Assembly (NCBI GenBank): GCA_965199825.1
Contig: OZ241329.1
Span: 2,641,869-2,705,868 of the forward strand
DNA from: Bdellovibrionales bacterium
Lineage (GTDB): Bacteria; Bdellovibrionota; Bdellovibrionia; Bdellovibrionales; UBA1609
Reading direction: 5' to 3'
DNA length: 64,000 nucleotides
The notes under the pieces are model-generated. The model saw only the letters and a program-made list of their open reading frames with translations. It ran no database searches and had not been told where the DNA came from. Position 1 is the stretch's first letter. Every line of letters starts with the position of its first letter. A program made the translations under genes and the position numbers. This document shows positions 52,953 through 64,000 of this stretch, piece by piece.

Positions 52953-55343
52953 TTATTTAAAGAGAATGTAGACCCCACTCGACCCACCGACCTGGCCACA
53001 ATCGAGCATTGATGATCGCAGCACCAATGAAGTTCCCACTGGAACCTTTTCGGTCAAATCAATGGGTGGCACATTTGCCGATCCCGCATCGGCAAAGGAT
53101 TGGAATTGGATTGGCGTATTTGAAAGCCGAATCGTTCCATCTGATAGGCGCGAATCGCCAGTGCCGTAGCCCAAAAGATCGAGCGAGTAGAGGCTCTGCA
53201 ATTCAACAAACAAAAAGTTGTCTACCGCGATAGGGCTTTTTCCTTGAGGGTCGCTGCTCAACACCACTTGACGAGTTCCGACAAGATCAAAACCAATTTC
53301 TTTACTTGCCATCACTCGGGGGTGCGGTGTTTGACCGTCGTGGTTCGCCGCCAACATATCATTTCGCATTGGCGAAAATAACTCTGAGCTTACGGTCGAA
53401 ACAGAATCAGTTAACTTTTTATAATAACAAGTCCCACGACCGTCACGTGCAGGCACATCAAAGTCTGTGGCGGTAATCTCGACATACTTCTGACACGTAG
53501 TCACTGGAGCCGCACATGGATTTTGTACTGTCGATGGAAGCACAAAGTTTTTAGCGCCAAGGATTTTCCATCCTGAGCTCATCATCTTCTGCATTGGGTC
53601 TGTCATTTGACCATTTGAGTAGAAAACGTTATCGCCCACTTGGCCACACATTGTGACAGAATCATTATCGTAAGAAGAACATGAACCACCGCGAGCCACT
53701 TTTCTCCACATCAAAGTAAGAGCAATATAATTTCGTGGTCCTTGATAATACTTCAATTCAAAAGGCAATTTTTGACCGCGTTTTAATCTTACAGTGGTAG
53801 GAGCACAAGCCATTGCTGAGGAATGCAAACCATCACTCGAAATCAGAGTTTGCAGTTTTCCTTTTTTATCAGCCACTGACAAAACAGCTCCGTCATCCGA
53901 GATCATTGCAAGTTCGTAATCACCTTCTTGGTCGGTGTCTGAAAGGGCGAGTTGACTCTTCAAATCAAGCGCAAACCACTCAACCATTAAATTTCCGTTG
54001 GCATCTTTAAGTTTTGTGCCGTCGGTTGCGGTAAAGCCTTGATCAAAGTTGATTGTGGGAATTGAGATCGTGTTCAAAAATAAATTCGAAGTGACCTCTT
54101 TACCTTGAGTGAGCATCGAATCCACACTGCCCGCAATCGCTTCACTTCCTAAAATCACACGACCTTGAATTCCATTGGCCACAGAGATCGGTTGCGAATT
54201 GCCGTCACAAACTACGGGTGCAGATTGCGAAGGATTAGGAACCGGCTGTGCCGAAACGGTTGGGTCAGGTTGTGGAGTTGCGGTTGGCGATGGAGTAGGA
54301 ATAGGGTCTGCACTCACAGTGGGTGAAGGTTGTGGTACTGGATCTGCGCTCACACTTGGTGTGGGAGTAGGATCAGCACTGACACTTGGAGTTGGTGTAG
54401 GATCTGCACTGACAGTGGGCGAAGGTGTAGGTTGTGGTGGAACATACTGAGTTGAACAGATATTTGTCGCACCTGAAGGCAAAATAAAATTCTGTGGCGC
54501 GATCGCTTGCCAGCCACGCAGTAAAAGATTGTTGTAAGCATTCATCGGCGCACTTGGGCTTTGAGTCGCATCCCAAAATGCAGAATCACCGGTCATGCCG
54601 CACAAAGGATCGCGGTTGGTGTCTGAATTGTCTGTGCTGACTTTTCTCCATAAAAGAGTCAAAGCCACATGAGCTTCATTAGTTTGATACCATTTGATAT
54701 TTAAAGGCACCATCAAACCGTGAGTCATGTTCACCACAAGAGATGAGCAAGCAAGGCGAGATTGATGTAAACCATCGTTATTTACAACAACGGTGGCTTG
54801 TCCGTTAATACCAAGATTGAGGATTGATCCATCTTCAGAGATCAGCGCGAATTGGTAAAGACCTTCGGCATCGGCATCTTGAAGTTTTAATTGGCTATTG
54901 AGATCGAGCGCAATGTTTTGAGTCACCGGGCTGCCCGACGCATCCACCACCGCTTGGCCGGAGCTATTGATAAAGCCCCCGCTAAATGAAGTGGTCGGAA
55001 TGTTTAACGAGCTAAAATAAACATTAGAGCTCAGTGACTGCCCGTTACTGATCATGGTTAAGGCTGAACCATTTTGTGAGGAGCTTGCGGTATAGAGGCT
55101 TCCCTTCAAACCAAAATTTGTTCCCTGAGAGACTGCGACGGGGTCGCAGATAATGTTTGGATCGGTAGATCCAAAAGTTGAAATCGGTGTTCCAATTCCA
55201 CCTTGGTTGATCGTGCTTGTCGCCGCAACCGCAGATGAAAAGTTAGAACTCTGATCTGGCGGATTGCTAGATCCCTTACTTGTACAGCCGGCCATAACGA
55301 CCGCACTTGATATAAACATAATGACTTGATTTAAACGTCCCAT
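52953..55343 (-). CDS. Large lipoprotein with two PA14-like domains and a Pro/Thr/Ser-rich repeat linker
   Basis: The ATG at 55343 (RBS ggggagggg) gives MGRLNQVIMFISSAVVMAGCTS. There are two internally homologous segments of about 170 aa (..EGLYQFALISEDGSILNLG.. / ..EGDYELAMISDDGAVLSVA.., each ending ALTL(L/M)WRKV). They are separated by (SADPTPTPSV)n. Confidence 0.75.
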   Translation of the reverse strand: MGRLNQVIMFISSAVVMAGCTSKGSSNPPDQSSNFSSAVAATSTINQGGIGTPISTFGSTDPNIICDPVAVSQGTNFGLKGSLYTASSSQNGSALTMISNGQSLSSNVYFSSLNIPTTSFSGGFINSSGQAVVDASGSPVTQNIALDLNSQLKLQDADAEGLYQFALISEDGSILNLGINGQATVVVNNDGLHQSRLACSSLVVNMTHGLMVPLNIKWYQTNEAHVALTLLWRKVSTDNSDTNRDPLCGMTGDSAFWDATQSPSAPMNAYNNLLLRGWQAIAPQNFILPSGATNICSTQYVPPQPTPSPTVSADPTPTPSVSADPTPTPSVSADPVPQPSPTVSADPIPTPSPTATPQPDPTVSAQPVPNPSQSAPVVCDGNSQPISVANGIQGRVILGSEAIAGSVDSMLTQGKEVTSNLFLNTISIPTINFDQGFTATDGTKLKDANGNLMVEWFALDLKSQLALSDTDQEGDYELAMISDDGAVLSVADKKGKLQTLISSDGLHSSAMACAPTTVRLKRGQKLPFELKYYQGPRNYIALTLMWRKVARGGSCSSYDNDSVTMCGQVGDNVFYSNGQMTDPMQKMMSSGWKILGAKNFVLPSTVQNPCAAPVTTCQKYVEITATDFDVPARDGRGTCYYKKLTDSVSTVSSELFSPMRNDMLAANHDGQTPHPRVMASKEIGFDLVGTRQVVLSSDPQGKSPIAVDNFLFVELQSLYSLDLLGYGTGDSRLSDGTIRLSNTPIQFQSFADAGSANVPPIDLTEKVPVGTSLVLRSSMLDCGQVGGSSGVYILFK
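54304..54429. repeat. Imperfect tandem repeat (36+30+30+30 nt) encoding the PT-rich linker
   Basis: Units ggatctgcgctcacacttggtgtgggagta / ggatcagcactgacacttggagttggtgta / ggatctgcactgacagtgggcgaaggtgta start at 54340, 54370 and 54400. A 36-nt variant starts at 54304. Confidence 0.85.
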
Positions 55344-55699
55344 TTTCCCCTCCCCAGGGTTTGCACAATCCTCAAGTTGCAATCTGTTTGTCTGATTCAG
55401 TCGGTTGATGATGAGGAAATCCCCATAAACCGCAGACAACTTAGTCGATCATCAACTTTTGGACATTTTTTGCCACTTCAAACTGTCTCACCTTAAGAAA
55501 AACCAGCTAGAAATACCAAAACTTTGGTCTATAATCATTTAAGTTTAGTCGTTTGACGCGCCGATTTTTAAGTAAGTGATCAACTCTTTTTCAACCCAAT
55601 CATTTCTCTTTAGAATACTTTTTGTACCATCGCTCGCAAGCCTTTGGTCTTGACAGATTTGGCAACTTCTAGCTTTAAAGGCTTTTTGAGGGGTTGCTA

Positions 55700-56908
55700 A
55701 TGTTCAATGTTTTAAAGATGTGTTTGATCCTGTTGTGTTTGAATAGTTCAGCCACTGTGCTGTCTGAGCTTTTACCGTATCACAGCTATTATTTTATCAA
55801 GCCCGTCTCCGAGGATGCTTATCAATTTGAGATTTGGCTCCATCGCGGTAAAGAAGTGACACGTGCTTTTGTTGCAATCAAAGATCTAAAAGGCATTGCA
55901 GATCTCAAATTGACATCCTTTCGTGAGACTATCGCTAGACTCGACCCGCCACCTGAAGAGGTTATGGATTTTACCAAACGAATTTCAAATCCTGAAATTA
56001 AACAGGTTGTGAACGCCCTCTATGATAAAATTAAGACGCTCATTCCAGGTACAACATTATATGATGTCATTTATCGTGGGCGCTTTAAAGAAATCCGAAT
56101 TCATGAGGTGATCGCCTATAGCCCCGAGGGCTCTGAAAAAAGAGTCGGCATCCGATCGACTCAAGATTTTAAAGTGACTGCCCGCGGGATTGAAGCCTCA
56201 TCGAATTTGTCACTGGCTGAGCCCTTAGGCTTTGATCAGGATCTTTTAAATCAGACATCGCTAATCGATTTTGTATTGCCCTCTGAGGTTGAGGGTTCGA
56301 GTTTATTTGCTCCTCATCATGATGGGGAGACTTCAAGTCATCACAACGCATATGAAAATCTGCTCAACGCAATTTTTGAAGCGGTCTTTACACCGTCTCA
56401 AACAGAGTCATCACTTCAAAAGCAATTTGAAAAAATCAAGTCTGACCAAGGGAGTTCGGCCAAACAGCTCAAGCAATTTTTTTCGTTTAGCTTCCATGTT
56501 GTTGGATATGCACGATCTTCAACTGATGTGATCGGTGCAACGGTCAATTCTGCAATTGCGGCCCAAGATATTATCCAAAACTCTATTTATTTAGTGCGGC
56601 GCATTCCTCAGATGGGAATTGAAGTGACGATCTCTGGGGGCAAAGACGATTTTCGTGTGAGAGTGTCTCAAGATGAGTCAACTCAAATGGCCGAATACAA
56701 GCTTAAGCTTTCCAATCCGATAACGGATTCTATTATTTATGGTCCGATTTATTTAGTTTCAAAAGACCACACCCAAGCCCAACACGAATTTGATTTCGCT
56801 GGCCCGCATCCTTTTCGATTGATTCATGTTGAGATTAATCAAGACATGCCTGTTTTAATTAAGACTGGATTAGTCCTAAAGGACTCCTGTTCTTCGGCTC
56901 TAAAGTAA
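55700..56908 (+). CDS. Hypothetical exported protein
   Basis: Signal-like N-terminus MFNVLKMCLILLCLNSSA (the ATG at 55700 is preferred over the TTG at 55694). 402 aa, no recognisable domain. Confidence 0.55.
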   Translation: MFNVLKMCLILLCLNSSATVLSELLPYHSYYFIKPVSEDAYQFEIWLHRGKEVTRAFVAIKDLKGIADLKLTSFRETIARLDPPPEEVMDFTKRISNPEIKQVVNALYDKIKTLIPGTTLYDVIYRGRFKEIRIHEVIAYSPEGSEKRVGIRSTQDFKVTARGIEASSNLSLAEPLGFDQDLLNQTSLIDFVLPSEVEGSSLFAPHHDGETSSHHNAYENLLNAIFEAVFTPSQTESSLQKQFEKIKSDQGSSAKQLKQFFSFSFHVVGYARSSTDVIGATVNSAIAAQDIIQNSIYLVRRIPQMGIEVTISGGKDDFRVRVSQDESTQMAEYKLKLSNPITDSIIYGPIYLVSKDHTQAQHEFDFAGPHPFRLIHVEINQDMPVLIKTGLVLKDSCSSALK

Positions 56909-56925
56909 CTGCGACTTATCAAGTC

Positions 56926-56946
56926 AGGTGACTATTCTTGTCACCT
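56926..56946 (+). terminator. Weak hairpin downstream of the 55700-56908 gene
   Basis: aggtgac-tattctt-gtcacct, a 7-bp stem with no clear U-tract. It is listed only because it separates the upstream gene from the sigma-54 promoter. Confidence 0.3.
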
Positions 56947-57003
56947 CTGAAAACAAATTTAAGCCTGCATTGACCTGCTGAACGCTTATGTCGGTTTAGA
57001 CCG

Positions 57004-57019
57004 TGGCACTCCTATTGCG
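57004..57019 (+). promoter_or_regulatory. Sigma-54 (RpoN) -24/-12 promoter
   Basis: TGGCAC-tccta-TTGCg matches the consensus TGGCAC-N5-TTGC(A/T) exactly in both the GG and GC elements and in spacing. It lies 85 nt upstream of the ATG at 57104, in an intergenic region. Confidence 0.7.
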
Positions 57020-57103
57020 ATACCCATGTTGTTGAAGAGTTTTAATTAAGCTTTGCCGCTTTAAAACGATCTCGTTCTGAAGCGCTAATAACAGGAGTTC
57101 GAA

Positions 57104-57802
57104 ATGGAAGCCCATACTGGAATGATCTCAGGTCTCGCACAAGCCTTCGTAGATGGCGGCTTTTGGATGTGGATGATTTTACTAACTCATATTGCATCGA
57201 TTGCGATCATTGCTGAGCGCATCTCGGCTCTATATTTGACGAAGTCATTAGGCCAAAAAGATTTAGCAAAAGGTTTTGAAGAAGACATTAAACGTGGTCG
57301 CTTAGAAACAGCTTTGAGCAAAGCTCAAGCAATCTCAGCCTCACAACCCATCGGTGCAGTTATCGCTGCAGGGACTCAAGTTGCGATGGACATGGGCGGA
57401 CGAGAAGAAATCCAAGCGAAAATGGATGAGATCTTGAGCGTTGAGAATTCAAAGCTTGAGCGACGTACCGGATTCCTTGCGATGCTTGGAAACGTTGGAC
57501 CCTTGCTCGGATTATTGGGAACAATTCTCGGTTTGATACAAGCGTTCTCGGCTGTGACAAACGTCAACGCTGCTGATCGCGCTGTGAAGTTAACCCAAGG
57601 TATTGCTCTTGGTATGAACACAACAGCTTACGGTTTGATCATGGCGATCCCTTCACTTATCGCTTACGCGATCTTTGTTAACCGCCAACAGCGCTTACAA
57701 GAAGATTTGAATCAAGCTGCAGTAAAAGTTTTTAACTGGCTCAGCTTTAACTACGAAGTTGTTCCTCAGCGCGCTACTCGTAGCTCAACTAAAAAAGTTT
57801 AA
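57104..57802 (+). CDS. MotA/TolQ/ExbB family proton channel protein
   Basis: 232 aa with 3 TM spans. The conserved C-terminal block is LGNVGPLLGLLGTILGLIQAF......A..GIALGMNTTAYGL. Confidence 0.88.
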   Translation: MEAHTGMISGLAQAFVDGGFWMWMILLTHIASIAIIAERISALYLTKSLGQKDLAKGFEEDIKRGRLETALSKAQAISASQPIGAVIAAGTQVAMDMGGREEIQAKMDEILSVENSKLERRTGFLAMLGNVGPLLGLLGTILGLIQAFSAVTNVNAADRAVKLTQGIALGMNTTAYGLIMAIPSLIAYAIFVNRQQRLQEDLNQAAVKVFNWLSFNYEVVPQRATRSSTKKV

Positions 57803-57810
57803 GGTGATTT

Positions 57811-58263
57811 ATGCGTCACAAACCAGAAATGAATTTTGAAATTAACTTGTTACCGATGATCGATATTCTCTCTGTCTGTATTAGCTTTTTGCTCTTTGCA
57901 ACAGTTTGGCTACACATCGGTACCTTTAATACAAAGCAAGCTCTGGGCACGGATGGCGCAGAGACGGCAAAAAATCCGCCGTCACTTTGGGTGCAGTTTC
58001 AAGAAAACGGCACTGTTGAACTGACTTTGAAAGATGCAGCACAAGCGCCAAAACAACTTCAGCGCTTAGTGCTCTCAAGTCGCGGTGGACATGTAGATGC
58101 TCAAGGTCTTGAGCAGTTTACATCGCAACTCAAAAGCCAACTTCCAACTTTGGATGTAGCTCTTGTGATGCCCACAGCGAAATCGGCTTACGAAGATGTG
58201 ATTACAGTGATGGATACTTTGAAAAAACGCGACGTGAAACAAATCGGCATTGCGCCCTTGTAA
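57811..58263 (+). CDS. ExbD/TolR family biopolymer transport protein
   Basis: N-terminal EINLLPMIDILSVCISFLLF (typical ExbD TM with Asp) and a periplasmic alpha/beta domain. 150 aa. Confidence 0.8.
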   Translation: MRHKPEMNFEINLLPMIDILSVCISFLLFATVWLHIGTFNTKQALGTDGAETAKNPPSLWVQFQENGTVELTLKDAAQAPKQLQRLVLSSRGGHVDAQGLEQFTSQLKSQLPTLDVALVMPTAKSAYEDVITVMDTLKKRDVKQIGIAPL

Positions 58264-58269
58264 GAGGAA

Positions 58270-58770
58270 ATGAAAATGCAAACGCTCGAAACACAACATT
58301 TAAACTCTGAGATTGATAACGGATCGATCCTTGGTTCACAGTCCACTCTTAAACCTAAAGGGTTTAAAGTCGAAAAACCAATGGCAACCGTCCTTAACTT
58401 AACCTCACTGATCGATGCTTTTACCATTCTTGTGAGCTATTTATTAATGGCTGCAAGTATCGGTTTAGAAACCATCGATATGCCAAAAGATATGCAGCTT
58501 CCAAACGCTGCAAAGAGTGACGTCCTTGAAAGAGGAATCGTTATTCGTATCACAGACAACCAATATTTTATCGATGATAAGCCAGTGGCAATGGATCAAA
58601 TGGGTCCACAACTCGCAGAATTGAAAAAATCTGTTGGAGCTGACAAGCCAGTGATCATCCAAGCTGATCGCCGCACTAACTTTATGCAAATCAACCCGAT
58701 TGTTCTTTCAGGACTTCAAGCCGGTTTTGCTCAGATTCGTTTCGCAGTTAAACAGGAGGATTCAAATTGA
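58270..58770 (+). CDS. ExbD/TolR family biopolymer transport protein (second copy)
   Basis: LNLTSLIDAFTILVSYLL TM with Asp, and IIQADRRTNFMQINPIVLSGLQAGF in the periplasmic domain. Confidence 0.75.
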   Translation: MKMQTLETQHLNSEIDNGSILGSQSTLKPKGFKVEKPMATVLNLTSLIDAFTILVSYLLMAASIGLETIDMPKDMQLPNAAKSDVLERGIVIRITDNQYFIDDKPVAMDQMGPQLAELKKSVGADKPVIIQADRRTNFMQINPIVLSGLQAGFAQIRFAVKQEDSN

Positions 58771-61721
58771 AATCCCTCCTCTTAAGCCTAATTTTAAGCA
58801 CAGGTGTTTCAGCCTTAGCCGATAAAATGGATTTATCTGAACACGATCTAGTTATTCAAAAACTAGAGAGTGTTTTGACCAGTGTATCTGATAAACCTGA
58901 GACCTTGCGTGGTATTGAAATGCGCTTGGGAGATTTGTATTCTGAGCGAGCCCGAATCAAAGCGGTCGAAGAAGGCAATAAGAATTGCGAAAAGTGCGTG
59001 GGATCAAAAGATGACCGCGCAAAAGCGATTGGTTATTATGATTCTGCATTTAACGGAGCAACAGGCGAGCAACAAACAAAGATTTTGCTCCAAAAAGCTC
59101 ATCTGTTTCAAATTAACGGTGACTTTAATAAATCCGAAAGTGTTTACGAAGAGATTATCAAACGTGGTGAAAAAATCACCGACAAACAACTCTTTGGTGA
59201 AGCTTTAGCCGGTCGCGGTGAAGCCAACTATCGCAAAGGCGAATTCTTAAAAGCCAAAAATGATTTCGAAAAAGCTTTAAAATTTCCAATCTCAAAACGT
59301 TCATTTATTCGCTATCGCCTCAGCTGGTGTTTATTAAACGAAGGCAAAGCGCAACAAGCCAAAACAATTCTTATTGGCATCCTCACTGGCGAAGACAAAA
59401 TCGATCTGTCATTTAGAAAAGATCTTTCACGTGACCTTGCAACCTTTTTGGCTCGTGGAACAATCAGCAACTCAGGAATTGATGAGCTCCTCAACAACAG
59501 TCCAGACGATGTTAAAAAATCAAATCTGTTTTATATGGGTGCCGAAGCCGATCGTCTGTCGAATGCTGCCGGATCACTCCTTGTTTGGAAGCGCTACACA
59601 GAACTTGGTAACGTCACTCCCCTTGAAGCTTTAGAAATCAAAATTCGGGTGACACAAACCCGCCTTGACCAAGGTTTTAAAAAAGAAGCTCTTGAATTGA
59701 TGGCCGACGCGACAGCTACTTGGAAAAAACAAGGCTGTAAAGAAGCCGATACCTGTGAAGAATTAAGACTGCGCTTAAGAAACTTTGTTCTCACTTGGAA
59801 TAAAAAAGAAAAAATCAATCCCTCACCTGAAGTTCTCACCGCATATGGCATTTATGTGGGCTTGTTTGATCAAGACTACGAAATGATCTATTGGTCAGCC
59901 CAACTTGCTAGAAGCAAGAATCAATTGCCTCTTGCTCTTAAGTACTACCGCCAAAGTGGTGATGTGACCTTTGCTCGCCTCACAGAAAAAAACCTTGATG
60001 CTGAAGTGATCAAGGCGATTCAAAAAATTAAAGAAGGATCACTCCTTTCTGAAATCGAAATTGCTGAATCTTTAAAAGATTTAAACAGCAAAGAATTAAG
60101 CTACAATCGCTACCTTAAAATGAACAGCAACGGCGCAAAAGTTTTTGAAGTGCGCTACCAATTGGCTCATGTTTATTCTGAAAAAGGATTAAACAAAAAA
60201 GCCGCTGAATCGTTTTATGATCTTGCTCTTGATAAAAACGGCAAACCTGATGATCTTCGTGTGAAATCGGCCGATCTTGCCCTTGATTCCTTGGCACTGT
60301 TAAAAGACAACGAAACCTTGGAGCAGTGGGCTGTTCAGTTCGCAGGCCTCTTTCCAGCCAAAAAATTAGAGTATTTAGGGATCGCTCGTAAAGCCTCGGT
60401 CAATCAAGCGGTAAGCATTGCCCAAGATACACATGCTTCGGACGCTCAACTCCGTAAAGCCTTAGAAAAACTCAAAGCCGCCCCACTTCAAGGTGCAACT
60501 CTTGAAGAAAAGGTTTTGATTCTTAAAAACCAAATCGTTGTGGCCGAAAAGTTAAAAGATATTGCTCTTGTTTCGATCGCAAGCTCAGGCCTGTTACATC
60601 TGCCAAAACTTTCTAAAGAAGATAAAGAATTCGCTCTCTCGCGAAAAGTTTGGGTTGCAGAACTTCGCTTGGATTTCAAAGACGCATTTAAGACCGCCAA
60701 AACAATGGAAATGAAAGATCTTAAAGCCGATCAAAAAGCTCTAAGACTGGCCCTTTTAAGCGAACTCAGTGGACAGAATCCAACAAGCTATTACGAGCAA
60801 GCTCTTCACCTTACAAAAGAGCGCGAAAAACGCAGCCTGATCATTGCAAAGATCACCAAGCTTTCAAAAAATCCTTGGCGCACAATGGATCAAAACTTTG
60901 CAGAGATCAGCAAGACTCCCCATGTGCTTGCTCCTTTAACACTCGAAGTGTTTGCAAGATCTCAAGATTATCAAAAACTTGAGCATGTTTTGAAAATCCC
61001 AAGTGTTCGATCAACTCCTGCTGGTCAAACTCTTTCGCGCTACACATTTTTAAAATCCTTTACCGGATTTGAAACCAAGATCTCAAGCCATCGTTTACTT
61101 TCTGGTTCGGATCAAACTTTGAATCGCACTTTGACCGAACGCCTTAAATTGTTGAACGAAGCTGATCGTTGGGCCAACCAAGCCATCCAAAGTAACGATT
61201 GGACACTTCAGATTTTGACTCTCAACCGAGTAGCCAAAGAAAATAATCGGTTGTTTGAGAACTTAACAAAACTTCCAACTCCCAGAAGTTTAAAAAAGGC
61301 CGAGCGCGAGCAGTATCAAACTTTATTGCTCCAAAAAGCTCAGCCATTTCAACAAAAGACTCAATCGGTTGAAACAAAATTGGCAACTCTTTGGAATCAA
61401 AGTGGTGTGATCAACCAAATGGTTTCGATCATCGCTAAGAGCTCTTCAGAAATTCGTAGTCTTTTGGCTCAAGAAATTTCACGACTCTTAAAAGTATCTC
61501 CTGATGATAAAAAATCTTCGCTTCAATCGTTACTCGCTGATGCTCATAAGCACCGCGACCATAGCGATCTTCGTGAAGCCACAGCCGATTTAAAACAAAA
61601 TCCATTTGATGAGAGCCGTATCACTCGACTCAAAAATCTTGAAGATACCGATGGTTCCCCTGCAATGAGTACTTTTTTAGAAGCTCGATTAACTCAACTT
61701 CATCAAGGAGCGATGCGATGA
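58767..61721 (+). CDS. Large exported helical-repeat (TPR-like) protein
   Basis: The TTG start overlaps the upstream stop (TTGA). Signal peptide MKSLLLSLILSTGVSALA. 984 aa of all-alpha repeat character (e.g. GEALAGRGEANYRKGEFLKAKNDFEKALKF). Confidence 0.7.
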   Translation: MKSLLLSLILSTGVSALADKMDLSEHDLVIQKLESVLTSVSDKPETLRGIEMRLGDLYSERARIKAVEEGNKNCEKCVGSKDDRAKAIGYYDSAFNGATGEQQTKILLQKAHLFQINGDFNKSESVYEEIIKRGEKITDKQLFGEALAGRGEANYRKGEFLKAKNDFEKALKFPISKRSFIRYRLSWCLLNEGKAQQAKTILIGILTGEDKIDLSFRKDLSRDLATFLARGTISNSGIDELLNNSPDDVKKSNLFYMGAEADRLSNAAGSLLVWKRYTELGNVTPLEALEIKIRVTQTRLDQGFKKEALELMADATATWKKQGCKEADTCEELRLRLRNFVLTWNKKEKINPSPEVLTAYGIYVGLFDQDYEMIYWSAQLARSKNQLPLALKYYRQSGDVTFARLTEKNLDAEVIKAIQKIKEGSLLSEIEIAESLKDLNSKELSYNRYLKMNSNGAKVFEVRYQLAHVYSEKGLNKKAAESFYDLALDKNGKPDDLRVKSADLALDSLALLKDNETLEQWAVQFAGLFPAKKLEYLGIARKASVNQAVSIAQDTHASDAQLRKALEKLKAAPLQGATLEEKVLILKNQIVVAEKLKDIALVSIASSGLLHLPKLSKEDKEFALSRKVWVAELRLDFKDAFKTAKTMEMKDLKADQKALRLALLSELSGQNPTSYYEQALHLTKEREKRSLIIAKITKLSKNPWRTMDQNFAEISKTPHVLAPLTLEVFARSQDYQKLEHVLKIPSVRSTPAGQTLSRYTFLKSFTGFETKISSHRLLSGSDQTLNRTLTERLKLLNEADRWANQAIQSNDWTLQILTLNRVAKENNRLFENLTKLPTPRSLKKAEREQYQTLLLQKAQPFQQKTQSVETKLATLWNQSGVINQMVSIIAKSSSEIRSLLAQEISRLLKVSPDDKKSSLQSLLADAHKHRDHSDLREATADLKQNPFDESRITRLKNLEDTDGSPAMSTFLEARLTQLHQGAMR

Positions 61722-61987
61722 TTCGCCGAATGATACTAATTGCCCTTACTATAGCGGCAACAACTTCGGCGGCCGCAGCGGCGTCGAAGTCAAAAAAACA
61801 CAAAGCTCTTCCTGAGGGCACAAAGCTCAGCACCGACATGCATTTTGATGAGCTCAATGTTCACGGAAAGTACCAAGCCGGTGATGAAGGCTACGCCACT
61901 GTTGAAGACGACAAACAATTAAATGATCTGCTCGATTATCGCAAAGACTATAAGGACCGGCTCTCAAAAAGCCGCTTTCAAAGGTAA
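61718..61987 (+). CDS. Small exported protein
   Basis: ATGA overlap with the upstream stop. Signal peptide MIRRMILIALTIAATTSAAAAA. 89 aa, charged, with an FDELNVHGKYQ motif. Confidence 0.5.
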   Translation: MIRRMILIALTIAATTSAAAAASKSKKHKALPEGTKLSTDMHFDELNVHGKYQAGDEGYATVEDDKQLNDLLDYRKDYKDRLSKSRFQR

Positions 61988-61992
61988 ATAAA

Positions 61993-63207
61993 ATGGCTGA
62001 AAAATCTTTTGTATTAGAAAATCGAAATGGCCAAACTGTCCGAGTGATTCATCTCGAAGACTCAAAAGTCTTGGTGATTTATCGCAAAGACACACGCCGG
62101 GTCGAGTTCGTCGAAAATACGGAGCACCTTGAAGATGGAACCTTTGAAATTCTTCATAGCACCACAGTTTCGGCAATCAAAAAAGAACCCTTGGAAATCG
62201 GTAATGCTGGAACATTAAAATATGTTTCTGCGATGACCGAATTCCCTCGCGAAGTCGAGCCCACTCAAGAGGATAAACAAAAATTTCCATTGATCCTCAA
62301 ATGGACCGCGGGCTCAACAGTTTCTGGCCTAGTTGTTTTGTTTGCAATGTCATGGGTGATTGGTCGCTTTTTTAGCGAAAAGATTCAGCAAGACGTTGTT
62401 GTTCAAGTGTTTGAACAGCAAGATTTGCCAAAAGAACTAAAGAAAACAAAAACGGTTGAGGTTTCTGAAAAGAAAATCAAGCCGCCAGAACATAAGAACG
62501 CAAAAGTTGTGAAGACTCCTCTTCGTAAAAAGATTGAGGTCACCACAAACAACCATGGAAAAATCCAAGGCCACACAGGCACAAACTTAAATAAAGTGGG
62601 CGCACTCGGTGCACTTGGCGGAATGGGCAAAAATTTTAACGGCAGCGGCGGACTCAACCTGAATGCCACCAAGAACAATGCCGGCATCGGAATGGGCGGA
62701 GTTGCAGCAGCGGGCGGACTTGAAAAAGGAATGCTCGGTAAAGGAATGATCGCTGGCGGCATCGGATCAGGCGGAAATCCAAAAGGTTTCGGCGGGTACG
62801 GGACTGCAGGTCGCGGTGGCGGCAAGCCCGGTTACGGAAATATGAGCATGGCCGGATCTTCAGCAGGTTTCTTTGAACCTCTAGGTGAAGAGACACAAGT
62901 TGAAGGCGGATTGGATCGCGATCAAATCAATGCGGTCATCCAACGTCATATCGGTCAAATTATTTATTGTTACGAACAGGGATTACAGACCAAGCCTTCG
63001 CTTTCAGGACGAGTGGCTGTGAAATTTGTGATCAGTGCTTCAGGCAGTGTGAGTGCGGCCAACGTGTCGAACTCTTCGCTTGGATCAAAGGCTGTTGAAT
63101 CCTGTGTGGTTGGTAAGTTGCGCGGTTGGCAATTTCCAAAACCATCTGGTCACGTCAATGTTCGCGTTATGTATCCCTTCGTTCTCAAACGTTTAAGCCA
63201 AGGATAA
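61993..63207 (+). CDS. AgmX/PglI-type (TonB-C-like) bitopic membrane protein with Gly-rich linker
   Basis: Cytoplasmic N-terminal domain of about 105 aa, one TM (VSGLVVLFAMSWVIGRFF), a Lys-rich segment, then a Gly-rich linker of about 90 aa. The C-terminal domain is LDRDQINAVIQRHIGQIIYCYEQGL...LSGRVAVKFVISASGSV..A.....SLGS..VESCVVGKLRGWQFPKP.....VRVMYPFVL, the pattern I recognise as the AgmX/PglI C-terminal domain. Confidence 0.72.
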   Translation: MAEKSFVLENRNGQTVRVIHLEDSKVLVIYRKDTRRVEFVENTEHLEDGTFEILHSTTVSAIKKEPLEIGNAGTLKYVSAMTEFPREVEPTQEDKQKFPLILKWTAGSTVSGLVVLFAMSWVIGRFFSEKIQQDVVVQVFEQQDLPKELKKTKTVEVSEKKIKPPEHKNAKVVKTPLRKKIEVTTNNHGKIQGHTGTNLNKVGALGALGGMGKNFNGSGGLNLNATKNNAGIGMGGVAAAGGLEKGMLGKGMIAGGIGSGGNPKGFGGYGTAGRGGGKPGYGNMSMAGSSAGFFEPLGEETQVEGGLDRDQINAVIQRHIGQIIYCYEQGLQTKPSLSGRVAVKFVISASGSVSAANVSNSSLGSKAVESCVVGKLRGWQFPKPSGHVNVRVMYPFVLKRLSQG

Positions 63208-63217
63208 GGAGTAAGCC

Positions 63218-64000
63218 ATGAAAGCTGTACGTCTGTTGCCCATACTTATTCTACTCTCCGCATGTAGCGGGGGATTGAATAAAGATCCATTGAATAAATA
63301 CCCAAGTCTGCGCACTGCCGCACGTGCCGATCTCGTTGGTACACCTGATGAGCAACGCTATCAGCGTTCATCTTTTAGTTGGTCTTTGGCTGACTCAAAA
63401 AATGAACCGATCAACGAAAATCAGATGCACACGGTTCAAGGTCAACCTCAGACCTATCGCATCTCACTGGTAAAGGTCTCAGCTTCGGGCGATTACTCGC
63501 TTGAACTTGAAAAAGACCAAGCCAATGATGCGATTACATCATCACAAGATGGCAAAACCTTGGTCGTCACGGTGAATCCAGATTCAAACTATGTGACAAG
63601 CTCGCTTCAATATCGCGAGATCAATTTCAAGGTGCATATCAAAGCTAAAGGCGAATCTGACTTTGCCAAAGCGATGAATAACGATGAGCCTGTTCACAGT
63701 TATACTGTAAACGTCTTTCGTGATTCCACAGTTCCAGTGATCGAAAAAATCACCTTATCAAAAACTTCGCTCAAAGCCCAAGACCAAGCGGTAATTACGA
63801 TTGATGTCTCAGGCAATGGTCTGAACGTACAAGATCTTCATATTTTTCCACAGTGTGATCGCACAGAAGAAGTGATGAAAAATAACGAACTTGGTTTAAG
63901 AGATGGTTGTGCCGGAATCGATCTTGGCGATCGCGGACTTCCTGTAATGACTCCATCTGGATCAGGTCACTTCACAGTCACTTATAAATTCAATGCGGCA
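63218..64000 (+). CDS. Lipoprotein, 3'-truncated by window end
   Basis: Not in the ORF track because no stop is reached. The ATG at 63218 (RBS aaggag) gives MKAVRLLPILILLSACSG. My hand translation is open for 261 codons to position 64000. It starts 10 nt after the AgmX-like gene. Confidence 0.6.
   Translation, partial: MKAVRLLPILILLSACSGGLNKDPLNKYPSLRTAARADLVGTPDEQRYQRSSFSWSLADSKNEPINENQMHTVQGQPQTYRISLVKVSASGDYSLELEKDQANDAITSSQDGKTLVVTVNPDSNYVTSSLQYREINFKVHIKAKGESDFAKAMNNDEPVHSYTVNVFRDSTVPVIEKITLSKTSLKAQDQAVITIDVSGNGLNVQDLHIFPQCDRTEEVMKNNELGLRDGCAGIDLGDRGLPVMTPSGSGHFTVTYKFNAA

Follow-up and report, generated by a model that had tools for sequence, protein, structure and literature searches.

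A probable Agl/Glt-type force-transduction operon of the expanded core complex kind in a Bdellovibrionales bacterium

We analyzed a 64,000-nt stretch of DNA from a Bdellovibrionales bacterium (GenBank assembly GCA_965199825.1, contig OZ241329.1, positions 2,641,869 to 2,705,868 of the forward strand; hereafter, the window). Seven open reading frames (ORFs), all on the plus strand and in the same direction, occupy window positions 57104–64000, and they very probably encode the inner-membrane and periplasmic half of an Agl/Glt-type machine. In order, they specify an AglR-like proton-channel subunit of the TolQ/ExbB family (gene 1, 57104–57802, 232 aa), a first TolR/ExbD-like subunit (gene 2, 57811–58263, 150 aa), a second, divergent TolR/ExbD-like subunit (gene 3, 58270–58770, 166 aa), a predicted exported tetratricopeptide repeat (TPR) scaffold of GltD/AgmU type (gene 4, 58767–61721, 984 aa, TTG start), a probable GltF/CglF-like small exported protein (gene 5, 61718–61987, 89 aa), a predicted bitopic transducer of GltG/PglI type (gene 6, 61993–63207, 404 aa), and a lipoprotein, here called X, that is cut by the window end (gene 7, 63218–64000, 261 aa seen). 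A reading of the window made from its letters and ORFs (hereafter, the sequence-only reading) had described these genes as a translationally coupled operon, and all of its ORFs and junctions were reproduced: from gene 1 to gene 7 the junctions measure 8, 6, −4 (TTGA), −4 (ATGA), 5, and 10 nt. Shine-Dalgarno-like GGAG/GAGG motifs stand ahead of most of the starts.

The Glt "core complex" consists of aglRQS together with gltD, gltE, gltG, and gltC, and four "expanded" sets have been described in Bdellovibrio bacteriovorus HD100 (Luciano 2011, PMC3169522). One trait of this complex, a single TolQ/ExbB-like protein combined with two distinct TolR/ExbD-like proteins that carry a transmembrane Asp, was found in genes 1 to 3. 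Hidden Markov model searches, which had been put forward as a check by the sequence-only reading, returned the expected broad families (MotA_ExbB, ExbD, and the AgmX/PglI domain discussed below), while the TolQ, ExbB, TolR, and ExbD equivalog cutoffs were all missed. The sequence-only reading had counted a place in the canonical ExbBD or TolQR clades as evidence against an Agl/Glt system, and these scores do not point to such a place. The product of gene 1 matched Pfam MotA_ExbB (E = 7e-28) and scored 78 bits on the NCBIfam TolQ equivalog (cutoff 221) and 64.7 bits on the ExbB equivalog (cutoff 206.2), which places it in neither. Its PDB matches were ExbB (8e-11) and TolQ (6e-10). Residues T140, T174, and P183 were invariant in an alignment with TolQ and ExbB of Escherichia coli (annotated K-12 record). 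In pairwise comparison, the protein was 32% identical to a Glt-linked protein of Desulfatiglans, 25% to E. coli TolQ, and 19% to E. coli ExbB. Identity to the first gene of the syntenic clusters described below was 51–81%.

The products of genes 2 and 3 each matched Pfam ExbD (E = 1.5e-15) and shared only 17% identity with one another. Gene 2 scored 34 bits on the TolR equivalog (cutoff 127), and the ExbD equivalog models gave at most 30 bits for the ExbD-like proteins of the window, against cutoffs of 123–216. The transmembrane Asp of gene 2 (in LLPMIDILSV) aligned with that of E. coli TolR and ExbD, and gene 3 retained a transmembrane Asp as well (in LTSLIDAFTIL). By position, gene 2 would be the counterpart of AglQ (Bd0419 in HD100, 149 aa) and gene 3 that of AglS (Bd0418, 165 aa). 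A variation at this site was seen in the Glt core clusters of Desulfatiglans (locus L014, 2532–3038, with equivalents in L015–L017): the first ExbD-like protein there has Asn at the transmembrane Asp site (LVPIMNMFLV) and the second keeps Asp, which suggests a plug with a single protonatable subunit.

The 984-aa product of gene 4 begins with a cleavable N-terminal signal peptide (MKSLLLSLILSTGVSALA) and has no lipobox. All of its TPR matches scored under the Pfam gathering thresholds. A word-based search returned 45 orthologues of about 980–1070 aa, which were unnamed and in many cases carried TPR Pfam annotations. A profile built from 43 orthologues aligned over 779 columns with the 1158-aa TPR protein of the Desulfatiglans core clusters (hhalign probability 98.5%, E = 1.8e-15). 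NCBIfam gave no GltD-specific match for either of these two proteins. Because of the signal peptide and this 779-column homology, we assign the protein to the GltD/AgmU type of exported scaffold and not to the cytoplasmic GltI/AgmK type named by the sequence-only reading; the predicted homology runs via the core-cluster TPR proteins rather than via Myxococcus xanthus GltD itself. Cytoplasmic GltI/AgmK has 3822 residues (PMC11761067) or, in Table 1 of Luciano 2011, 4132 aa (PMC3169522). In HD100, Bd0417 (987 aa) has been listed as a homologue of MXAN_4870/GltD (Luciano 2011).

The 89-aa product of gene 5 had been left without a role by the sequence-only reading, and it is probably, though not proven to be, GltF/CglF-like. 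It matched the NCBIfam gliding_CglF model end to end (residues 5–85 against positions 3–84 of 88; E = 4.9e-4, 20 bits, cutoff 90), and its length and position point the same way. CglF and GltF are the same protein (PMC4488436), and M. xanthus GltF has 89 aa and is encoded immediately upstream of gltG in the cluster gltD-gltE-gltF-gltG (PMC3169522, Table 1). The small protein is conserved across 14 loci; it has a signal peptide, and some of its residues do not vary.

The 404-aa product of gene 6 aligned with the NCBIfam GltG model (NF033760) from residue 146 to 400, against model positions 394–647 of 650 (E = 3.5e-41, 141.5 bits), and its AgmX/PglI C-terminal domain scored 111 bits on NF033768 (cutoff 40). 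The GltJ/AgmX model gave only E = 1.7e-12. The sequence-only reading had called the protein AgmX/TonB-C-like; the C-terminal domain bears this out, and the GltJ/AgmX name gives way to GltG/PglI, the type to which we assign the protein. Of the TonB C-terminal models, Pfam TonB_C stayed below its threshold (17.9 bits, threshold 24.6) and TIGR01352 tonB_Cterm just passed (28.5 bits, cutoff 27.1). A search returned 384 homologues at E ≤ 1e-5; among the 120 listed, lengths were about 390–450 aa and the named ones came from Bdellovibrionales. A further trait of the core complex was found here, namely a GltG-like bitopic inner-membrane protein with a transmembrane helix (residues 97–127) and a TonB-like AgmX/PglI C-terminal domain.

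The GltG-like protein was divided into successive parts with the help of an AlphaFold2 model and an alignment of 82 homologues. Residues 1–80 (61993–62232, plus strand, like all parts of the gene) form a cytoplasmic, beta-rich N-domain in the model, followed by an acidic linker (residues 81–96). The fold of about 80 aa has seven strands and one helix, and its predicted local distance difference test (pLDDT) score was about 90 in both the full-length and the domain-only models. The sequence-only reading had left the N-terminal cytoplasmic portion unrecognized. A Foldseek search of the PDB gave no neighbor (best E = 0.6, TM ≤ 0.3), none of the 82 homologues had an FHA or other Pfam match in the domain, its profile matched no PDB sequence, and hhalign did not align the domain with those GltG-like proteins of Desulfatiglans that contain FHA. 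In M. xanthus, the cytoplasmic N-terminus of GltG carries FHA domains (PMC11761067), and the FHA hypothesis derived from this protein was rejected on all four grounds (Pfam, PDB sequences, Foldseek, and hhalign). In a search of 1.84 billion representatives, the N-domain profile matched 183 clusters; the 150 listed all had the match N-terminally, in a protein no longer than 508 aa. By this distribution, the domain occurs only in the GltG-like family of gene 6.

The N-domain and its linker are followed by a single transmembrane helix (residues 97–127, 62281–62373; helical in the AlphaFold2 model and hydrophobic in sequence) and by a periplasmic spacer rich in Lys, Glu, and Val (residues 128–199, 62374–62589). 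The spacer is poor in Pro (mean 8%), varies in length from 59 to 89 aa, is poorly conserved (mean majority fraction 0.37), and was modeled with pLDDT values of 46–61. Next comes a Gly-rich segment (residues 200–300, 62590–62892) with 35 Gly (35%) in the protein of the window. The sequence-only reading had regarded this linker as unusual. On the contrary, Gly made up 26–35% of the segment in all 82 homologues, its length was fixed at 99–107 aa, Pro accounted for 3%, and eight glycines were invariant (G209, G220, G241, G242, G258, G273, G277, and G288). With a mean majority fraction of 0.63, it was the second most conserved part after the C-terminal domain, compared with 0.45 for the N-domain. 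The GltG model alignment runs across it, and AlphaFold2 predicted it to be disordered (pLDDT < 50). We read it as a conserved module of the family and no anomaly of one gene. In an AlphaFold model of the M. xanthus system, a long GltG segment runs in a crevice of GltD (PMC11761067), from which we infer that the Gly-rich segment is a putative ligand of the TPR groove.

The C-terminal domain (residues 301–404, 62893–63207) resembles the TonB C-terminal domain and is the part that scores 111 bits on the AgmX/PglI model. It was modeled with pLDDT > 90, its top Foldseek matches in the PDB were the C-terminal domains of TonB, FusB, and TolA (6fip, E = 7e-3, probability 1.0), and it aligned with the GltG-like proteins of Desulfatiglans at a probability of 99.3% (hhalign).

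Lipoprotein X (gene 7) has the lipobox LLSAC, and the 261 aa seen within the window matched no Pfam or NCBIfam family. A word-based search of 5.8 billion proteins returned no match to it, not even itself. That collection does contain the GltG-like protein and the TPR protein encoded by this genome, both at 100% identity; either gene 7 escaped the public annotation or its product is lacking from the collection. In the closest relative, L021, the protein encoded at this position (544 aa) was 25% identical to lipoprotein X, whereas the neighboring genes of the two loci were 64–81% identical. Most relatives encode a lipoprotein at this position, and these share 21–27% identity with each other. We take lipoprotein X for a fast-evolving orphan family that is conserved as a component by its position, and by position it would be the counterpart of Bd0415.

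The order of a TPR gene (about 984 aa), a small gene (about 89 aa), and a GltG-like gene (about 405 aa) was found in 13 loci of metagenome-assembled genomes (MAGs) from Bdellovibrionaceae and Pseudobdellovibrionaceae. Nine of the 13 had the three motor genes directly upstream, and the full six-gene order was thus kept in nine loci of the two families (eight from the genome collection, plus L021); one further locus, L007, was cut at a contig edge. Three loci (L003, L009, and L011) had gltD-gltF-gltG without aglR/Q/S-like genes directly upstream, so the motor and Glt modules can be unlinked within the family, as they are in Myxococcus.

The continuation of the operon was visible in L021, where the GltG-like protein shares 71% identity with that of the window. 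Four further genes of the operon lie downstream of its gltG-like gene. The first is the homologue of gene 7 (544 aa), and it is followed by genes for an OMP_myx_plus barrel of 238 aa (88 bits, cutoff 60), a GltC-like TPR protein of 344 aa (E = 5.5e-11), and a protein of 429 aa with a weak von Willebrand factor A (VWA) match. L003, L008, and L013 repeat this pattern, with weak matches to CglD and MIDAS adhesins on the last gene. Across the relatives, the barrel scored 88–112 bits (cutoff 60), and the GltC-like protein gave E-values between 5.5e-11 and 2e-7 without reaching the equivalog cutoff. Neither a TonB-dependent receptor nor TolB or Pal was found in the operon of the window or in those of its relatives. 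The sequence-only reading had named TonB-dependent receptors downstream as a finding that would speak against an Agl/Glt system, and the downstream genes of the relatives were of Glt type instead.

The weak matches of the last operon genes in L013 (14832–15818) and L008 (14404–15681) were to the NCBIfam MIDAS family adhesin (Bdellovibrio Bd0875 type) and the gliding lipoprotein CglD. Among the MIDAS-motif lipoproteins of Bdellovibrio, Bd0875 and Bd1483 have been studied, and Bd0875 is needed for prey invasion (PMC11003981). Bd1483 is the last tag of the agl-like set Bd1473–1483, and that paper does not discuss whether MIDAS adhesins are connected with Agl/Glt clusters.

The sequence-only reading had mentioned homologous clusters in Bdellovibrio, and one such set, Bd0413–Bd0420, was already listed in 2011 as Agl/Glt homologues. 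The operon of the window has the same gene order as HD100 Bd0412–Bd0420 (also cited as Bd0411–Bd0421), a "tonB-like/agl" operon that is one of four Agl/Glt-like sets. According to the supplementary table of Luciano 2011, Bd0420 (248 aa) is the homologue of AglR, Bd0419 (149 aa) of AglQ, Bd0418 (165 aa) of AglS, Bd0417 (987 aa) of GltD, Bd0416 (408 aa) of GltG, Bd0414 (246 aa) of GltB, and Bd0413 (355 aa) of GltC. The sizes in the window are close: 232 aa vs. 248 for the AglR-like protein, 150 vs. 149 and 166 vs. 165 for the two ExbD-like proteins, 984 vs. 987 for the TPR protein, and 404 vs. 408 for the GltG-like protein. The same holds for L021, with 238 aa vs. 246 for the GltB-like Bd0414 and 344 vs. 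355 for the GltC-like Bd0413. Both clusters also have an extra gene between GltG and the barrel, at the position of Bd0415. The table lists no GltF homologue for the HD100 set, in which the tags Bd0416 and Bd0417 are consecutive, whereas the window has its small GltF-like ORF there. The table gives no GltE for Bd0413–0420.

Compared with the Agl–Glt system of M. xanthus, the likeness lies in the parts and their arrangement. Each system combines one TolQ-like protein with two TolR-like proteins that differ from each other. Each also has a large TPR protein and an 89-aa protein, both exported, as well as a bitopic protein in which a long disordered periplasmic region accompanies an AgmX/PglI TonB-like C-terminal domain. 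The genes gltD, gltF, and gltG stand in the same relative order as in M. xanthus cluster G1, and in the relatives of the window an OMP_myx_plus barrel, a GltC-like TPR protein, and a VWA-type protein (compare CglB) come next. The differences are several. Motor and glt genes form one operon in the window but three clusters in M. xanthus, and the cluster type lacks GltE, GltH, GltI, GltJ, and GltK of M. xanthus. GltG has 404 aa with the orphan 80-aa beta domain here and 640 aa with two FHA domains there. Where the M. xanthus TPR protein has a lipobox, that of the window has an ordinary signal peptide, and window-type clusters (as seen in relatives) have one barrel in place of GltA and GltB. The fast-evolving lipoprotein X is an addition, and all M. 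xanthus Glt equivalog cutoffs were missed by the proteins of the window.

The core clusters of the Desulfatiglans MAGs (L014–L017), which are of the type that Luciano 2011 described in non-gliding bacteria, are similar in that aglR-Q-S-like genes adjoin genes for a GltG-like protein, a barrel, a GltC-like protein, and a large TPR protein. Their gene order is different, and a GltF-like gene is lacking. The GltG-like protein of these clusters, with about 850 aa, includes FHA and a TonB-like spacer rich in Pro and Lys, and they encode an additional protein of about 470 aa that is possibly GltE-like.

Taken together, the operon very probably encodes one half, that in the inner membrane and periplasm, of an envelope-spanning force-transduction machine of Agl/Glt type. 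The machine would be driven by the proton motive force (PMF) and belong with the expanded core complexes of Bdellovibrionota. The sequence-only reading had offered either an Agl/Glt-type gliding motor or a novel TonB-like system; its Agl/Glt part is supported, and "novel" does not apply, as gene order and sizes match the catalogued Bd0413–Bd0420. In such a machine, the TolQ/ExbB-like protein would form the channel ring, and the two TolR/ExbD-like proteins would form a heterodimeric plug, each with a proton-binding transmembrane Asp; by analogy, the presumed stoichiometry would be AglR5-AglQ-AglS (5:2). An AglR–GltG interaction has been detected by two-hybrid assay in M. xanthus (PMC3169522), and an AlphaFold model of that system includes AglR5QS–GltG and GltG–GltD contacts with GltF bridging (PMC11761067). 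On these grounds, the transmembrane helix of the GltG-like protein may dock on the ring, with the 80-aa cytoplasmic domain beneath. Its unstructured periplasmic part of about 170 residues would span the periplasm, and the Gly-rich segment and the TonB-like C-terminal domain may bind the TPR scaffold of GltD type, bridged by the GltF-like protein. Past the window, the operon presumably goes on, as in relatives, to encode a barrel of GltA/B type, a TPR protein resembling GltC, and a VWA-type protein, and this module would couple the work of the motor to a surface adhesin. The likely output is surface translocation, either gliding or movement in prey entry and early establishment.

Several points weigh against this interpretation. 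The GltF assignment is weak (20 bits), and the CglF model was matched by one of the 14 family members, the window copy alone. The 141.5 bits of the GltG-like protein compare with a GltG equivalog cutoff of 650 bits, and the protein lacks the FHA domains of M. xanthus GltG. A GltE-type TPR protein (about 470 aa) is absent from the operon of the window and from the syntenic operons of its relatives. As the window ends in gene 7, the outer-membrane components were seen only in relatives, of which the closest has a GltG-like protein 71% identical to that of the window. Orthology to Bd0413–0420 is inferred from published gene order and sizes, not from aligned sequences. A 2026 review calls the gliding machinery of Bdellovibrio still unidentified (motor, adhesins, and force path). 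Finally, the expression timing of Bd0412–0420 points to prey entry and establishment over surface scouting: the operon is induced 4–7 fold at 30 min of predation, and the other three sets respond to host-independent growth (Lambert 2010, PMC2797640). In a 2025 proteome study, the Bd0411–0421 proteins peaked at 45–60 min (PMC12546842).

A further reading is conceivable, though we hold it to be doubtful. Under it, the Bd0412–0420-type class would be a machine dedicated to prey entry and establishment in the periplasm, not a surface-gliding motor. The N-domain of the GltG-like protein, having taken the place of FHA domains, would be a new control or docking module in a system without GltI, GltJ, and AglZ-type partners, lipoprotein X would be a prey-facing, diversifying component, and the Gly-rich segment would be a specific ligand threaded in the TPR superhelix of GltD.

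TonB-like energy transduction, in which the PMF would power uptake or secretion across the outer membrane and not movement, was offered as an alternative for Bd0412–0420 (Lambert 2010, PMC2797640), and for the operon of the window we consider it improbable. What the operon shares with TonB-ExbB-ExbD and TolQ-TolR-TolA systems is the MotA_ExbB and ExbD motor families, with the key Thr/Pro and Asp residues kept, and a bitopic protein whose C-terminal domain folds like that of TonB or TolA and just passes the TIGR01352 tonB_Cterm cutoff (28.5 vs. 27.1 bits). Unlike those systems, it has two different ExbD-like subunits, and the ExbB and ExbD equivalog cutoffs were missed by a wide margin. The spacer region is conserved and Gly-rich, neither helical nor the rigid Pro-rich kind (Pro 3–8%), and the best family match of the bitopic protein was GltG, at E = 3.5e-41. 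No TonB-dependent receptor was found in the window or downstream in any relative, nor were TolB and Pal; the partners are a TPR protein, a GltF-like protein, and Glt-type outer-membrane proteins, with a small OMP_myx_plus barrel accompanied by TPR and VWA-like proteins on the outer-membrane side. Two distinct ExbD paralogues, a TPR scaffold of about 1000 aa, and a GltF-like protein are hallmarks of Agl/Glt and not of Ton systems.

Still more remote is a Tol-Pal-like system for envelope integrity or cell constriction, composed of a TolQRA-like motor and a CpoB/YbgF-like TPR partner: gene 1 scores slightly better on TolQ (78 bits) than on ExbB (65 bits), gene 2 is best on TolR, the TPR protein has a weak tol_pal_ybgF match (E = 1.4e-4), and TolA domain III is among the Foldseek matches, but all Tol equivalog cutoffs were missed (TolQ 78/221 bits, TolR 34/127 bits), TolB and Pal are absent from the operons of the window and its relatives, two TolR-like genes, a GltF-like gene, an AgmX/PglI domain, and Glt-type downstream genes do not fit, and B. 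bacteriovorus has four such sets with differing expression programs, unlike a housekeeping Tol-Pal system (PMC2797640).

The 195 nt ahead of gene 1 (56909–57103) are presumed to hold the promoter of the Agl/Glt-type operon. A perfect 7-bp inverted repeat (AGGTGAC-N7-GTCACCT, 56926–56946) begins 18 nt past the stop of the upstream gene, is not followed by a T-run, and could be a terminator stem or an operator. A scan for sigma-70 and terminator consensus sequences gave no matches in these 195 nt, and matches in the region as a whole were no more frequent than expected by chance. Directly upstream lies a 404-aa ORF (55694–56908, plus strand), whose product is hydrophobic at the N-terminus and matched no Pfam or NCBIfam family. 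This gene was rejected as part of the operon: L021, a close relative, has an unrelated gene in its place, and since the upstream gene is not conserved there, the conserved unit starts at 57104.

Further upstream, an 828-aa protein is encoded on the minus strand (52953–55439). Its N-terminus resembles a lipobox (VVMAGC), and its two PA14-like modules (Pfam PA14, E = 3e-7, two stretches) are connected by a linker rich in Pro and Thr, in which the repeated motif PTPSVSADP corresponds to a 30-nt tandem repeat (54340–54431). L021 has a 38%-identical homologue at the same relative position upstream of the operon, on the opposite strand. Two adjoining genes on the minus strand (39822–42667) resemble membrane glycosyltransferases, one being Alg9-like (Glyco_transf_22, E = 1e-25) and the other matching PMT_2 (E = 7e-6). 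The remainder of the window carries chromosomal housekeeping genes (BamA, UvrB, UvrC, CysRS, GluRS, and RecG), and the GC content of the whole window averages about 43%.

The four Agl/Glt-like sets of HD100 are the standing candidates for the gliding machinery of Bdellovibrio. To these, the locus adds a well-conserved example of the predation-induced set and no new kind of system. It provides a cleaner parts list, with a GltF-like ORF, a GltG in which an orphan N-domain stands in for FHA, a Gly-rich module that is conserved, and a lipoprotein that evolves fast, and in its relatives the outer-membrane half (barrel, GltC-like protein, and VWA-like protein) travels with the rest. Its value lies in the comparative material that it offers for picking residues and genes to mutate in B. 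bacteriovorus.

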